The notes under the pieces: model-generated
Told to the model about the DNA's origin: nothing
The model's input: the letters and a program-made list of their open reading frames with translations, nothing else
Databases searched by the model: none
From: Saprospira grandis DSM 2844
GTDB lineage: Bacteria > Bacteroidota > Bacteroidia > Chitinophagales > Saprospiraceae
Assembly: GCA_945888475.1 (NCBI GenBank)
Contig: CAMDAB010000004.1
Coordinates: 4,678-68,677 of the forward strand
Direction: 5' to 3'
Length of the DNA stretch: 64,000 nt
Part shown: in pieces, positions 31,286 through 35,371 of the stretch
How positions within the stretch are numbered: the stretch's first letter is position 1
Layout of the letters: each line of letters begins with the position of its first letter
Made by a program: the position numbers and the translations under genes

Positions 31286-32059
31286 ATGTACTCCACCACC
31301 CTCCTATCAAACCAAACCATCCTCGTCACAGGCGGACGCAGCGGTATCGGCTACAGCATTGCCGAAAATGCCTTGAAACAAGGTGCAAAAACAGTTTTTA
31401 TTGCTTCGAGAGATGCTGAAAAACTAAATGAAGCTTGTGAAAAACTGAAAGCGTTTGGCGATTGCAGATGCTTTTCGCTGGATATCAGGCAGCCAGAGCA
31501 AGTTTCAAAACTGGCTGATTTTATTGCAGCAGAAAGCGGCAGACTCGATATTTTAATCAACAATGCCGGAGGACAATTTCCATCGGCAGCAGAAGATATT
31601 AGCATCAATGGCTGGAATGCTGTTATAAATAATAACCTCAATGGAACCTGGTACATGACACAGATCATGGCCAAGCGTTTTTTTATAGCTCAGCAATCGG
31701 GAAATGTCATTAATATCATTGCCAATATTTTCAGGGGCTTTCCCGGAATGGTGCATACGGGTGCAGCCCGTGCTGGAGTTGACAATCTGACCAAAACACT
31801 GGCAGTAGAATGGGCAAGAAACAATATCCGTGTCAATGCTATTGCTCCGGGCATCATTGCCTCGACCGGACTAGAGAACTACCCACCCGAACTTTTAAAG
31901 GGCATATCTGACAGAATTCCGATGAAGCGACTGGGCAGCACTCAGGAAGTTGCGGATTTAACCCTTTTTCTCATGAGCCCACTTTCCTCCTTTATTACAG
32001 GAGAAACCATCTACATCGACGGTGGTCAAAGGCTTTGGGGCGATGTTTTTGAGTTATAA
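31286..32059 (+). CDS. Short-chain dehydrogenase/reductase
   Basis: TGGRSGIG Rossmann motif and an NNAG motif. Confidence 0.8.
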   Translation: MYSTTLLSNQTILVTGGRSGIGYSIAENALKQGAKTVFIASRDAEKLNEACEKLKAFGDCRCFSLDIRQPEQVSKLADFIAAESGRLDILINNAGGQFPSAAEDISINGWNAVINNNLNGTWYMTQIMAKRFFIAQQSGNVINIIANIFRGFPGMVHTGAARAGVDNLTKTLAVEWARNNIRVNAIAPGIIASTGLENYPPELLKGISDRIPMKRLGSTQEVADLTLFLMSPLSSFITGETIYIDGGQRLWGDVFEL

Positions 32060-35000
32060 AAACGCCCTGTCGGCATTATCCAAGGCACAAAAGAGCAGTA
32101 TTTTAAATTCCAGCAGGTCCAAAGGATAATTCGTTGTGATTTTGGAGTTTAAATCTGTTATAACACCCGACTGCTCTCCCTTGCGCAAATCATAAATTCG
32201 AGTCACATAACTTTTTAAACTTTCGGCATATAGCTGCTCTCCTGCCCTATAAACCAAGACCCTAACAGGATTTGGCATCTGATGCGGAGGATAAAAAAGG
32301 TGATAACCGCGCTCGTTTTTAAGCAGGTCGTAAAGGGCATATCCTTCGGCCTCAATGCTATGATCCGTAACTTTAAAACTAATAGCAAGGCTGTCCAGAA
32401 AGCTGCTGTATAAATCTAAGAGATAGTTGCAAAATATTTCGCCCTTGTTCTGCACAAGCGAACTGATGTGAATTTCTATTTTATCAGTTTCATTCGAAGC
32501 CGCTGCCTGTGCCGACATATTTAAAAAAGCAAGATCTGTAAAATCGTTCAGGTAGAAAGCCTCTTCACGGCTGTATTCATCTGCCGAATTTTTAAATAAA
32601 TCGCTTAACTCGTCTAAATAATTTTGCTCAAATAAATGCTCAGGTTCAAAAAACTTGGTATTTGTTTCAAGATGATGGAACGGAGCCTTTTTTAATTTTA
32701 TTTTTGAAACTGTAAGGTGTTGATTTTCATAAATATTTTTGAAGTCTGAACGCAAAAATTCGAATTTATCCTTTTTCTCCTTTAAGGCTTGCTTTAATTG
32801 ATAAAATCGCCAATCGGCAGCATTCAGGTTCGCTTTACTTTTGTTTCTCTCGAAATAACCTTCATCATAAAAATGCTCATTTTCGACAAGCTGCTCTAAC
32901 TTTTCCAATTTAGCTATCAAAGCTTCATATGCTTGTCTAATTTGCAGAGCGGCTGGCAAAGTAGGAATTTGCAGCGCTGCATTTGAATCCAAAACATTCA
33001 AAGTTTCAAGTTTGGATTGCAACTGACCATCCTTCAATTCAATATTGAACAAAACAGGAGCAGTACCCGAACTTTTGATGAGTTCTTCGGCAGAAAAAAG
33101 TGTTAAGTCCTTTTCTATCTGCCTTTTCAATGCCCTTCCACCCATTTTGCTATCAAATCCGCGTCTGGCAACCCAATGTAAAACCTCCTGAGAAATATTG
33201 AGAATAGTCGTTCTGCGCATAAAACCTTCTCTTGTAAACAAATGCCCAATCTGAATTCTCGCAATTTCGAGAATGTCCTCCAATTTAAGTGAATTAAAAA
33301 TTACGATATCCTCAATTCGATTTACAAATTCCGGTCTGAAATTCTTTTCAATTGCATTTCTGTAAATTTGCTCATTAGAACTATTGCTAGTTTCGAATCC
33401 CATCCGATGCCCAATTTCTGAAGAACCTACATTGGAAGTCATTATAATGACATAGTTTTTTAAATCAATTTTTCGACCCAATGCATTGGTAAACATGCCC
33501 TCATCTAATACCTGAAGCAAAAGATCCTTTACTTTTTTGTCTGCCTTCTCAATTTCATCAAAAAGTAAAACACCAAAAGGTTTATTACGCACACTACTTG
33601 CCAAAAGTCCCTCTGCATGATGATAATCACCCAGAAGCCGATTGACCGAATAAGCATCAGGATATTCATTCATATCGAAGCGGATAAGTTTTTGCTCATC
33701 GCCCAGCAGATAGCGGCACAGCACTTTGGCTGCCTCTGTTTTTCCAACTCCTGTGGGCCCAACAAAAAGCAAAGTTGCCAAAGGCTTATTTTTATTTTGT
33801 AATTTTGCTTTTATCTGATGAATAAGATCACTTATTTTGGCAACTGCAGAGTCCTGCCCTATTAGCGCAGCACTGATCCTCTCTTCGATTTCTTCATTTT
33901 CTAATGTATAAATGTCATCGAGTATCATTGTACTCAATCCGCTGTGTTGTGCACATTCAGCTTTTGCAATTTCAGCAGTCAGTGTTGAATTATTGAATTT
34001 TTGAGCAAATTGAATCAAAAGTTTTGCTACCGAGCCAGGTAAAACCTGATAACTCGAATAGCTTCGCTGATGTTCAAAAATTGTCTTGATTGTCTGCAAC
34101 TCAATGATACAGTTAAAATCGAACTCCAATTTTTTGCTCAATTGAAGCATCATTTTCATGGCATCTTCTTCCGATGTCTGCTTTATTGGAATTTGTTGAA
34201 AAAGATCGGCAAATCGCCTGTTCTGTTCACAAATAAGATTCCACTCATCGGCTGTTGATAATAAAATGAATTGAAGCGATGAATCCTCAATATATGGCTT
34301 AATTAAATCAGAAACACTAAGTCTATTTTGAGCAGATTTTCCAATTCTGAGCAAGGCCAATGGATTATCTATCAATATACTATCGCAAAGATCACTGTTG
34401 AATTTCTGTAGTCGTTTTTCGACATAATCAAGTATTTTACTCAATCGTTTTTGCCACATTCCCACCACTGTCATTCCCGAAATAAGACGTAGGGGATCGA
34501 GCAGCCAAATCTTTTTCATTTCCCGATCATCTGCATCATTATTATGATTTTCAAGTAAATATCTATAATGCAGCTCTTCGATGAGGCTGTGCCGGCCAAC
34601 TCCCTCAGGACCAATAATAACAAAAGAGGTTTTGTCGGCACTGTAGATCAAAGGCTTTATTTTTGCAAGCTCATTTTCACGATAAAATGCCCTTTTAAGC
34701 CCCGAAGGATAACGGGTTCCCAAGTCAACAGCAACTTTATCCAATTCATCGGCTCCATTAAAATCTTTCTGTTTATTACTAAGCCTGTAAAAGTCAATTT
34801 TATTATCATCCTCAAAATTAAATCCTTTATGTTCAACTTCTATTGTCAGCTCCAACTCGCTTACAAACTCAGCTCTTGCCGTCTGGTGTTGTTCCATATC
34901 CCATAGTTCGCAATCATATTGCTTTTTGTATGATTTAACCAGTTTACATATTTCAGTTATAACCTTATCCTGCAAGGCTTTGCCTTTCAATTCAGACTTG

Positions 35001-35371
35001 CCCGTCATAAAAGTATGGGAAGAAAATCCCGATAGGGTTATAAAATATTCCGTTCCCAAACAAAAACTGATGACTGAAAATTTTGCAGCTACGTATTGCT
35101 TTTTGCCAATGTAAAACTGCAAAGGAATTGCCTTATGCTGAATTTTTGGATTGAATTTGTACCAGAATAATTTTTCAAAATTAGTGCGGTCTATTTGTAT
35201 GGATGACAAACTTTTACGGAGTTGCTGCCTGAATTGCTGAAGGGCTGTTTCTAAACTGCGGTCTGAAACCTGTGGCTGTTGAAAAAAAACAGGCTTAACA
35301 AGATACAGCAACTGTCCGTCGGATTTAATATTTTGTATCAGGACAGGAACCGTTAATTTAATTTGAGCCAT
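32054..35371 (-). CDS. Divergent Hsp100/ClpA-like two-domain AAA+ protein with a degenerate D1 and long unique N- and C-terminal extensions
   Basis: D1 Walker A is GPEGVGRHS (K to R, T to H). D1 Walker B region is ILIDNPL (DE to DN). D2 is intact: GPTGVGKTE, LLFDEIEKA, and sensor-2 GGRALKR. The segment MTSNVGSSEIGHRMGFE aligns with the ClpA IGL ClpP-docking loop. Confidence 0.7.
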   Translation of the reverse strand: MAQIKLTVPVLIQNIKSDGQLLYLVKPVFFQQPQVSDRSLETALQQFRQQLRKSLSSIQIDRTNFEKLFWYKFNPKIQHKAIPLQFYIGKKQYVAAKFSVISFCLGTEYFITLSGFSSHTFMTGKSELKGKALQDKVITEICKLVKSYKKQYDCELWDMEQHQTARAEFVSELELTIEVEHKGFNFEDDNKIDFYRLSNKQKDFNGADELDKVAVDLGTRYPSGLKRAFYRENELAKIKPLIYSADKTSFVIIGPEGVGRHSLIEELHYRYLLENHNNDADDREMKKIWLLDPLRLISGMTVVGMWQKRLSKILDYVEKRLQKFNSDLCDSILIDNPLALLRIGKSAQNRLSVSDLIKPYIEDSSLQFILLSTADEWNLICEQNRRFADLFQQIPIKQTSEEDAMKMMLQLSKKLEFDFNCIIELQTIKTIFEHQRSYSSYQVLPGSVAKLLIQFAQKFNNSTLTAEIAKAECAQHSGLSTMILDDIYTLENEEIEERISAALIGQDSAVAKISDLIHQIKAKLQNKNKPLATLLFVGPTGVGKTEAAKVLCRYLLGDEQKLIRFDMNEYPDAYSVNRLLGDYHHAEGLLASSVRNKPFGVLLFDEIEKADKKVKDLLLQVLDEGMFTNALGRKIDLKNYVIIMTSNVGSSEIGHRMGFETSNSSNEQIYRNAIEKNFRPEFVNRIEDIVIFNSLKLEDILEIARIQIGHLFTREGFMRRTTILNISQEVLHWVARRGFDSKMGGRALKRQIEKDLTLFSAEELIKSSGTAPVLFNIELKDGQLQSKLETLNVLDSNAALQIPTLPAALQIRQAYEALIAKLEKLEQLVENEHFYDEGYFERNKSKANLNAADWRFYQLKQALKEKKDKFEFLRSDFKNIYENQHLTVSKIKLKKAPFHHLETNTKFFEPEHLFEQNYLDELSDLFKNSADEYSREEAFYLNDFTDLAFLNMSAQAAASNETDKIEIHISSLVQNKGEIFCNYLLDLYSSFLDSLAISFKVTDHSIEAEGYALYDLLKNERGYHLFYPPHQMPNPVRVLVYRAGEQLYAESLKSYVTRIYDLRKGEQSGVITDLNSKITTNYPLDLLEFKILLFCALDNADRAFL

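Follow-up and report, generated by a model that had tools for sequence, protein, structure and literature searches.

A Clp/Hsp100 ATPase family of Saprospira grandis and its relatives with a degenerate D1 ring and a release factor-like C-terminal module

The gene described here lies on the minus strand, at positions 32054–35371, of a 64,000-nucleotide stretch of contig CAMDAB010000004.1 from Saprospira grandis DSM 2844 (assembly GCA_945888475.1), which at its full length is referred to below as the window. It is complete, comprising 1105 codons followed by a TAA stop, and begins with an ATG, a choice of start that is supported by the conservation of the family alignment from residue 1 onwards. 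Neither is it a chance open reading frame (ORF), given that its translation matches the Pfam family AAA_2 with an E-value of 1e-42 and has 59 full-length homologues. The product is a Clp/Hsp100 protein with a C-terminus that resembles the peptide chain release factors (RFs), and we refer to it as the Clp-RF protein. From its N-terminus, it consists of an α/β domain (residues 1–205; 34757–35371), a first AAA+ module, D1 (residues 206–490; 33902–34756), a second AAA+ module, D2, together with its D2-small domain (residues 491–771; 33059–33901), and a C-terminal module with a helical part (residues 805–960; 32492–32959) and an α/β part (residues 961–1105; 32057–32491); these features, and the motifs within them given below, are all on the minus strand. 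A first-pass annotation, made from the sequence alone, had proposed an atypical Hsp100/ClpA-like double-ring protein of 1105 residues at this position, and this is confirmed by the ORF listing, Pfam and phmmer. The sizes that it gave for the two extensions require correction: the N-terminal one is of ~205 residues rather than ~250, as the alignment with ClpB D1 begins at residue 208, and the C-terminal one is of ~335 residues (772–1105) rather than ~300. In the databases, homologues carry no annotation more specific than 'ATP-dependent Clp protease ATP-binding subunit' or 'AAA family ATPase'.

Membership of class I of the Hsp100/Clp ATPases is indicated by the presence of two tandem AAA+ modules, the second being of the AAA_2 type and followed by ClpB_D2-small, and by the alignment of D1 to the D1 modules of ClpB and ClpA. 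Pfam locates AAA_2 (PF07724) at residues 529–689, and ClpB_D2-small (PF10431) at residues 695–766 with an E-value of 6e-10. The Clp_N repeat domain (PF02861) was not found in the protein, its place being taken by the N-terminal α/β domain; moreover, scans of the whole protein with Pfam, NCBIfam and PADLOC detected only the generic AAA/Clp core and matched neither extension. The NCBIfam equivalog models for ClpA (TIGR02639) and ClpB (TIGR03346) gave 300 and 301 bits, respectively; because these scores fall below both cut-offs (993 and 1232 bits), the protein is a relative of the Clp/Hsp100 proteins that is neither ClpA nor ClpB. In phmmer searches of PDB sequences, D2 matched the D2 of ClpB with 194 bits and D1 matched residues 159–391 of ClpB with only 33 bits, whereas residues 166–766 of the query matched residues 125–722 of ClpA as one continuous stretch. 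The M-domain is absent: just residues 449–460 of the query span residues 391–528 of ClpB.

Both extensions were modelled with AlphaFold2 from family alignments, giving pLDDT (predicted local distance difference test) values of 86.8 for the C-terminal and 86.7 for the N-terminal one. No resemblance to RFs was seen for the N-terminal domain in profile comparisons. When the C-terminal model was compared with the PDB using Foldseek, the top 27 matches were all class-I RFs, with E-values down to 1.3e-5 and probabilities of 0.82–1.00; the next match had an E-value of 0.15. The alignments to RF1 and RF2 cover ~320 columns, and they put the helical part, which is built of long helices in the model, where the RFs have their domain 1. 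The template modelling (TM) scores of these matches are low because the relative orientation of the domains differs in these multi-domain proteins. An independent comparison was made with hhalign, in which the C-terminus of the 56-sequence family alignment (from which the column counts given below were also taken) was set against a three-sequence alignment comprising RF1 and RF2 from E. coli and the RF2 encoded in the window. The two align end to end over 249 columns with an E-value of 4e-6 and scores of 32.5 (global) and 36.8 (local), as against maxima over 150 column shuffles of 9.6 and 23.1, and reversed controls of 6.8 and 16.1, respectively. Against a lone RF2 sequence, the probability was 24%, and a clear signal needed both the three-sequence RF alignment and the shuffle null.

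The hhalign signal sits in the α/β half of the module (residues 961–1105), which aligns with RF domains 2 and 4 and skips residues ~205–300 of RF1, namely, the GGQ domain. Three core motifs are thereby brought into register: the ExGxH motif (E1020-x-G1022-x-H1024) corresponds to E178/G180/H182 of RF1 and E195/G197/H199 of RF2; the RxY motif (R1058-x-Y1060) to R308/Y310 of RF1 and R324/Y326 of RF2; and the sequence T-D-L-R at residues 1072–1075 to T-D-H-R (318–321) in RF1 and K-D-L-R (334–337) in RF2. GGQ domain 3 is replaced by ~21 residues in most members (between P1035 and R1058 here), and no conserved GGQ exists in the family, the four chance occurrences being at unrelated positions. Likewise, the stop-codon tripeptide, PxT in RF1 and SPF in RF2, was not found; the equivalent hairpin is shorter and reads PPHQMPNP (xxHQNPLP in the family). 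What the module does present is a helical domain followed by the fold of RF domains 2 and 4, the codon-recognition superdomain. We conclude that the C-terminal module is an RF homologue that has kept both of these regions, and has lost the GGQ hydrolase domain as well as the PxT/SPF reader. The first-pass annotation had called the two extensions unique; it is true that Pfam matches neither of them, but the description undersells the C-terminus, which is an RF-like module excised of its GGQ domain.

The preceding modules differ sharply from each other in the state of their ATPase motifs. The Walker A motif of D1, GPEGVGRHS (residues 254–262; 34586–34612), departs from those of ClpB (GEPGVGKTA) and ClpA (GESGVGKTA) through the replacement of the lysine by arginine (K260R) and of the threonine by histidine. 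Across the family, the lysine position is occupied by Lys in 43 sequences and Arg in 13, the window protein being among the latter, and the following residue is His in 28, Thr in 13, Ser in 6, Lys in 5, Arg in 3 and Met in 1; the family-typical motif is, therefore, GVGKHS, in which the lysine is kept by most members and is usually succeeded by His rather than Thr or Ser. In the Walker B motif, SILIDN (residues 331–336; 34364–34381), the aspartate of ClpB LFIDE is kept and the catalytic glutamate is replaced by asparagine, and position 336 is Asn in 49 members, Asp in 7 and Glu in none. The D1 pore-loop block, ISGMTVVGMWQKR (residues 297–309; 34445–34483), has the family signature AGMS[IV]VGMWQKR and aligns to the canonical AG(A/T)KYRGEFEER, with Ile or Val in the family in place of the tyrosine; residues I297, G299, M300, G304, W306 and R309 are invariant. 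At the canonical Arg-finger site, identified with phmmer and MAFFT against ClpB ALERRFQ, lies the sequence RRFADL (residues 385–390; 34202–34219): D389 and L390 hold the canonical positions (ERRFQ in ClpB becoming ADLFQ), and four residues upstream is a conserved RR pair.

The attributes of a competent D1 of the ClpA type (Walker A GK[TS], Walker B hhhhDE and Arg fingers) are, therefore, missing, and by every motif test D1 is a pseudo-ATPase. It is, moreover, a strongly constrained one, since the losses of the Walker B glutamate, the Arg fingers and the pore tyrosine are conserved family traits. The replacements in Walker A and Walker B (ILIDN) had been read correctly in the first-pass annotation, and they are not alignment artefacts, as phmmer and MAFFT agree; at the level of motifs, its prediction of a hydrolysis-dead D1 is also supported, with the Walker B glutamate absent from 56 of 56 sequences and the Arg fingers and pore tyrosine replaced. 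The further suggestion that D1 might not bind nucleotide fares less well: the window protein does have the arginine, but K260R is confined to 13 of the 56 sequences, and because it is lineage-specific, the suggestion may hold for this sub-lineage only. Relatives carry GVGKHS or GKT where the window protein has GVGRHS, and nucleotide binding by D1 may survive in many of them, being more doubtful in the window protein itself.

By contrast with D1, D2 has retained a full set of catalytic motifs, all of them invariant in the family: Walker A, GPTGVGKT (residues 538–545; 33737–33760); Walker B, LLFDEIEK (residues 602–609; 33545–33568), with D605 and E606 invariant; sensor-1, TSN (residues 645–647); the Arg finger, NR (residues 684–685); and sensor-2, GGRALKR (residues 744–750; 33122–33142), with G744 and R746 invariant. 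The canonical nature of Walker A, Walker B and sensor-2 had been recognized beforehand, and it extends to sensor-1 and the Arg finger. The pore-1 loop of the same ring, GDYHHAEG (residues 581–588; 33608–33631; family consensus GDYYNPEG), is a different matter. In 56 of 56 members, it is shortened by a deletion of five residues relative to the GAPPGYVGYEEGG of ClpA, ClpB, ClpC and ClpV, which removes the aromatic-hydrophobic-Gly motif (GYVG in Hsp100 D2) from the motor ring. This motif is a feature of canonical AAA+ unfoldases. An aromatic residue is present at position 583 or 584 of the loop in 46 of the 56. On its motifs, then, the motor ring is catalytically intact, yet its substrate-gripping loop is non-canonical, a point that had been overlooked and that weakens a simple label of 'unfoldase'.

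Downstream of sensor-1, D2 contains the tripeptide MGF (residues 657–659; 33395–33403), which the family counts and the ClpA register single out as a candidate ClpP-docking loop. The column counts are [L27 V18 I4 T3 M2 F2]-[G54 S2]-[F41 Y11 L4]: a glycine in 54 of 56 sequences, followed in all 56 by an aromatic residue or leucine and preceded in 53 by a hydrophobic residue, within a post-sensor-1 segment that is otherwise variable. The register was set through a ClpA-like outgroup (P0064), which scores 959 bits against the ClpA model and 780 bits against E. coli ClpA (PDB code: 1ksf). Its SIGF aligns with S616-I617-G618-L619 of ClpA, and in an ungapped alignment the tripeptide of the family precedes it by one residue, such that MGF is one residue off the register of I617-G618-L619. 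As a control, a hydrophobic-Gly-[FYL] tripeptide was sought within 28 residues of the start of TSN: the ClpA-like and ClpC-like outgroups and 56 of 59 family members have one, and it is missing from five ClpB-type sequences, two atypical Clp-like sequences and one aligned ClpV. At the sequence level, the family thus has the [LIV]-G-[FL] tripeptide that follows D2 sensor-1 in ClpA, ClpC, ClpE and ClpX and docks on ClpP. The first-pass annotation had aligned this segment with the IGL loop of ClpA, and MGF does indeed occupy the position of ClpA IGL and ClpC VGF, to within one residue, is conserved in the family and has no equivalent in the ClpB and ClpV outgroups. Its position and conservation support a role in ClpP docking, albeit short of proof, and we judge that coupling of the family to ClpP is, by a little, the favoured outcome on these motifs.

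The 59 full-length relatives obtained by database searching have ~1070–1210 residues and range from 91% to 28% identity; the next matches beyond them are ordinary ClpB, ClpA and ClpV proteins aligned over D2 only. Searching 1.84 billion representative proteins with a profile of the C-terminal module gave 437 matches with E-values of 1e-3 or below, 283 of them at 1e-10 or below. Every full-length match among the 437 has 1060–1170 residues with the module at residues ~760–1100, and the shorter matches, in which it starts at residue 1 or 2, appear to be truncated. The RF-like module is, therefore, tied to this ATPase, as all the full-length matches carry both. A scan of species-representative genomes for the D1 signature of the family identified 208 genomes, the best 80 of which belong almost exclusively to the Saprospiraceae and Lewinellaceae (Saprospira, Aureispira, Phaeodactylibacter and Lewinella), and include that of the cultured P. 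luteus KCTC 42180. The Clp-RF proteins apparently constitute an undescribed family that is found mainly in these two groups.

A more distant arrangement is seen in an Acidobacteriota contig (L005, 4542–14400; GCA_040754075.1), where three relatives of 1100, 1108 (P0057) and 768 residues are encoded in tandem, the second and third ATPases being separated by a 199-residue protein with a hydrophobic N-terminus. The AGMS..G.W loop of D1, an [LI]GF loop and the short pore loop of D2 are common to all three, as is a canonical GKT in D1; the three ATPases may form hetero-oligomers. The 768-residue paralogue has the LGF loop and lacks the RF-like module, which implies that the module was added within a broader clade of Clp-like ATPases that bear LGF and lack the D1 glutamate. 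Separately, in an atypical Clp-like protein of 793 residues from a metagenome (P0067), the N-terminus is hydrophobic and probably spans the membrane, Walker B of D1 (YIPEF) and the pore loop of D2 (GASAGEGSEKG) are both degenerate, and the Arg-finger site of D1 reads FTDIFE, resembling that of the family; no LGF tripeptide is present in it.

Within the window, two clpP genes are found in tandem on the plus strand (24100–24816 and 25072–25782); the copies are ~88% identical, the Ser/His/Asp motifs are present in both, and clpX (25816–27081, plus strand) directly follows the second. The first-pass annotation had drawn attention to a distance of 6 kb between the Clp-RF gene and this duplicated locus. 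The distance, ~6.3 kb, is real, but the linkage is absent in 80 related loci: when 9 kb around the Clp-RF gene was analysed in the best 80 of the 208 genomes, clpP1, clpP2, clpX, lpxD, prfB and the SDR gene were all missing from every locus (0 of 80). As neither recurs in these loci, the closeness of the gene to clpP and to prfB in the window is coincidental, and we have discarded proximity to clpP as a functional argument. De novo clustering of the neighbours yielded a single candidate, in 31 of the 80 loci: a protein of ~880 residues with an N-terminal β-rich region and two AAA modules of the CbbX/SpoVK type (GNPGTGKTT...FIDEAY), which is encoded upstream of the Clp-RF gene (for example, L032 1534–4194, minus strand; also L025, L027, L049 and L070), immediately so and divergently in ~20 of the 31. 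We treat this as clade synteny because all 31 loci are from one Phaeodactylibacter/Lewinellaceae clade and the gene is absent from the window.

Some further features of the window may be recorded here. The prfB gene, encoding RF2 (~30081–31164, plus strand), has a classical programmed +1 frameshift, frame 0 reading MTTEQLHDLKTRLGVLGRYL and then a stop, and the +1 frame continuing as DVANRT.... Directly upstream of its start, at 29856–30073, is a tandem array of a 7/14-nucleotide unit with ~13–14 copies of CTAACTTCAGATTT and ~10 copies of TTCTAAC. On the other side of the Clp-RF gene, and divergent from it, two adjacent genes (35811–37085 and 37086–38099, plus strand) encode proteins with type-IX secretion sorting domains (Por_Secre_tail), consistent with a Bacteroidota host. 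Two antisense ORFs, at 34568–34906 (plus strand, 112 residues, within the Clp-RF gene) and 31351–31674 (minus strand, 107 residues, within the SDR gene), were dismissed as artefacts rather than genes; in the clustering of neighbours, antisense ORFs of a similar kind gave rise to spurious 'conserved' groups.

The architecture that emerges, that of a class-I Clp protein with a dead D1, a live D2 and a GGQ-less RF-like C-terminus, is near-certain, and it sets the protein apart from each of its better-known relatives. It is like E. coli ClpA (TIGR02639; PDB codes: 1ksf and 6w1z) in being a double-ring class-I protein with no M-domain, a tripeptide at the IGL position and canonical D2 ATPase motifs; it differs in having no Clp_N, in the loss of the catalytic glutamate, Arg fingers and pore tyrosine from D1, in a D2 pore loop that is five residues shorter and in the additional 335 residues of RF-like C-terminus. 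With ClpC and ClpE, the Gram-positive partners of ClpP that have VGF or LGF loops, it shares the MTSN(V/I)G...[LV]GF context after D2 sensor-1, and its D2 scores ~220 bits against ClpC structures; unlike them, it has no Clp_N, no coiled-coil M-domain or MecA-type regulation module, and its D1 is inactive. Rings of the type of NSF D2 and p97 D1 offer a parallel of another kind: in these type-II AAA+ proteins, one stacked ring is hydrolytically weak or inactive and serves mainly in assembly of the hexamer, and the other is the motor. On its motifs, the Clp-RF protein likewise pairs one weak or inactive ring with one motor ring, but NSF and p97 belong to a different AAA+ clade. There is a precedent for defining a distinct class of double-ring Clp proteins by bioinformatics, and for inferring ClpP coupling from the presence or absence of LGF, in the account of ClpI of the Actinomycetota, as far as it was available to us (PMC10149685); there, both ATPase modules are intact, an M-domain is present, an RF-like domain is not, and the phylum is another.

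Compared with RF1, RF2 and PrfH, the module stands out through the absence of GGQ domain 3 (in its stead, ~21 linker residues), of PxT or SPF and of any PCRF or RF-1 match, and through its fusion to an AAA+ motor. In the available part of a 2019 survey of RF evolution (PMC6514570), PrfH, ArfB, ICT1 and MRPS35 are described through their peptidyl-hydrolase domain, whether active or inactive, several of them being without flanking domains, and the reverse pattern, a codon-recognition domain without the hydrolase, is not described there among the bacterial RF variants. The same part of the survey has the peptidyl-hydrolase domain inserted into the codon-recognition domain of RFs (PMC6514570); the RF-like Clp family, therefore, represents a natural dissection of the codon-recognition superdomain from its inserted hydrolase. 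The nearest functional analogies are with Dom34/Pelota and ABCE1, and with the eRF1-like Vms1 and Cdc48, of archaea and eukaryotes, in which a non-terminating, RF-derived A-site module is coupled to an ATPase on stalled ribosomes; the recruitment of the AAA+ protein Cdc48 by Vms1 is described in the available part of PMC6514570. These systems differ in that the aeRF1 fold is unrelated to that of the bacterial RFs, and in that they consist of separate polypeptides, as opposed to a single fused protein.

On this basis, we propose that the Clp-RF protein is a single-motor, ClpP-dockable hexameric unfoldase that is targeted by a dead RF mimic, possibly to ribosomes, and we would put the probability of this reading at roughly 0.45. 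In such a machine, the D1 ring, being strongly conserved and yet stripped of its catalytic glutamate, canonical Arg fingers and pore tyrosine, would most likely serve in assembly and in contacting the substrate. D2, on its motifs, would be the only motor, and would pull the substrate through its shorter, non-canonical pore loop, whereas the hydrophobic-Gly-aromatic tripeptide, given its register, would dock the ring on ClpP, for which the genome has two near-identical genes with active-site motifs intact, so that substrates would be degraded. Targeting would presumably be supplied by the two extra domains, the C-terminal one of which is the RF homologue. Most likely, this mimic would bind where RFs bind, at the A site and decoding centre of the ribosome, or else to a partner that binds RFs, and it would bring the unfoldase and its protease to ribosome-associated substrates, for example stalled or surplus translation complexes. 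In complexes of RFs with the ribosome, domain 1 of the RF has its N-terminus directed outwards from the factor-binding site, which makes the docking of a fused RF mimic in the A site sterically plausible. Targeting to ribosomes is, all the same, a tentative suggestion. More speculative still, and rather doubtful, is the idea drawn by analogy that the protein may embody, in bacteria and in a single polypeptide, the dead-RF-plus-ATPase logic of the archaeal and eukaryotic Dom34–ABCE1 and Vms1–Cdc48, in which the mimic would dock in stalled, damaged or surplus ribosomes, and the Clp motor with ClpP would extract and degrade the bound protein or dismantle the complex.

Several observations weigh against the proposal as a whole. 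Some concern the RF-like module: the Pfam families PCRF (PF03462) and RF-1 (PF00472) gave no match to it, either with the whole protein at E-values up to 1 or with 19 C-terminal fragments at E-values up to 10; in a plain hmmsearch of PDB sequences with the C-terminal profile, RF2 ranked below coiled-coil noise (syntaxin), at an E-value (~0.09) that by itself is not significant; and the helical part gave no sequence-profile signal on its own, so that only its structure equates it with RF domain 1. Every known stop-codon-reading element has been lost, and the module is mildly acidic, with median net charges of −3 and −4 for its two parts; together with the lack of linkage to translation genes in the 80 loci, these two points speak against ribosome targeting in particular. 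In the sub-lineage of the window protein, moreover, a near-invariant arginine of an RF motif is replaced by asparagine (R1075N), and several conserved D2 residues deviate. Others concern the machine itself: processive threading is not assured, because pore loop 1 of D2 has lost five residues and, with them, the aromatic-hydrophobic-Gly motif; the ClpP-type loop and the RF-like module are separable, as the 768-residue Acidobacteriota paralogue has LGF only; and the neighbourhoods in the 80 loci show no linkage to clpP or to translation genes.

It is possible, though on balance unlikely, that D2 hydrolysis serves instead to disassemble complexes or extract proteins without degradation, and independently of ClpP, for example in the splitting or recycling of ribosomes or the removal of bound factors, as with Dom34–ABCE1 or ClpB, the tripeptide then having a structural role or another docking function. 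The short D2 and aliphatic D1 pore loops, which argue against classical threading into a protease, would accord with such an activity, as would the lack of clpP linkage in the 80 loci and the fact that the D2 domains of ClpB are the closest PDB sequence matches by score; a GGQ-less RF mimic joined to an ATPase also resembles Dom34, an inactive eRF1 paralogue, and its ATPase, to judge from the available part of PMC6514570. It would, however, leave unexplained why the tripeptide and its flanking hydrophobic residues have been kept in a variable loop, at the site of the ClpP loop in ClpA and ClpC, when the ClpB and ClpV sequences that were compared have nothing similar, and the protein lacks the M-domain through which coupling to Hsp70 would be expected.

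Alternatively, and with a somewhat smaller likelihood, the protein could be a housekeeping ClpP ATPase of the Saprospiraceae that has replaced ClpA or ClpC, its RF domain having been exapted as a generic domain for regulation or for binding of substrates or adaptors, with no connection to the ribosome. The family is, after all, widespread and apparently vertically inherited within one lineage, and its gene stands alone without a conserved operon; the RF catalytic domain and every element that reads stop codons are gone, the module is acidic, and ExGxH, RxY and TDLR may stabilize the fold rather than contact the ribosome. Against this, the core RF motifs are strongly kept down to 28% identity, the Acidobacteriota included, which suggests that an ancestral interaction surface has been retained.

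It might also be supposed that the window gene is a decaying, non-functional copy. Together with the 91%-identical P0001, its product forms a divergent sub-lineage in which 16–17 of 154 conserved columns deviate, among the highest numbers in the family, with K260R, P586A, R626M and R1075N among the substitutions. The 1105-codon ORF, all the catalytic motifs of D2 and MGF are, nevertheless, intact, and the intactness of the ORF and of the D2 motifs indicates that the gene is under purifying selection. The deviations are, moreover, old, since they are common to P0001, and the differences between the two proteins avoid the conserved columns (4.9% versus 10.7%; Fisher p = 0.001). The last observation leads us to reject the pseudogene explanation, which is very improbable. 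A role in anti-phage defence, suggested by the occurrence of ClpB-like ATPases in Dodola and in PADLOC candidate systems and by PADLOC matches to PDC-M37B (E-value 3e-31) and DolB (E-value 3e-27), is rejected as next to negligible, because the matches cover only the generic D2 region (residues 383–765) and no conserved partner gene, of Dodola, PDC-M37 or otherwise, and no defence-island context were found in the 80 loci, and since the distribution appears to be lineage-wide rather than sporadic and the genes around it in the window have housekeeping functions.

The usual criteria for classifying Clp/Hsp100 machines are the N-domain, the M-domain and the ClpP loop. What is new in the present family of Clp/Hsp100 unfoldases is the domain fusion and the remodelling of the motor, and its lineage-wide combination of a dead D1, a D2 pore loop that has been re-engineered, a ClpP loop that has been kept and an RF fold without its catalytic domain widens the design space of these machines. 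The proposal that the RF mimic links the machine to ribosomes is testable, as cultured hosts such as Phaeodactylibacter luteus exist. If the mimic still binds ribosomes, it would provide a direct link between a Clp protease and the ribosomal A site, and a bacterial analogue of eukaryotic ribosome-associated quality control. Should the idea of a dead RF that brings a Clp motor to such ribosomes prove true, it would amount to a previously unknown pathway of ribosome quality control or turnover in the Bacteroidota.

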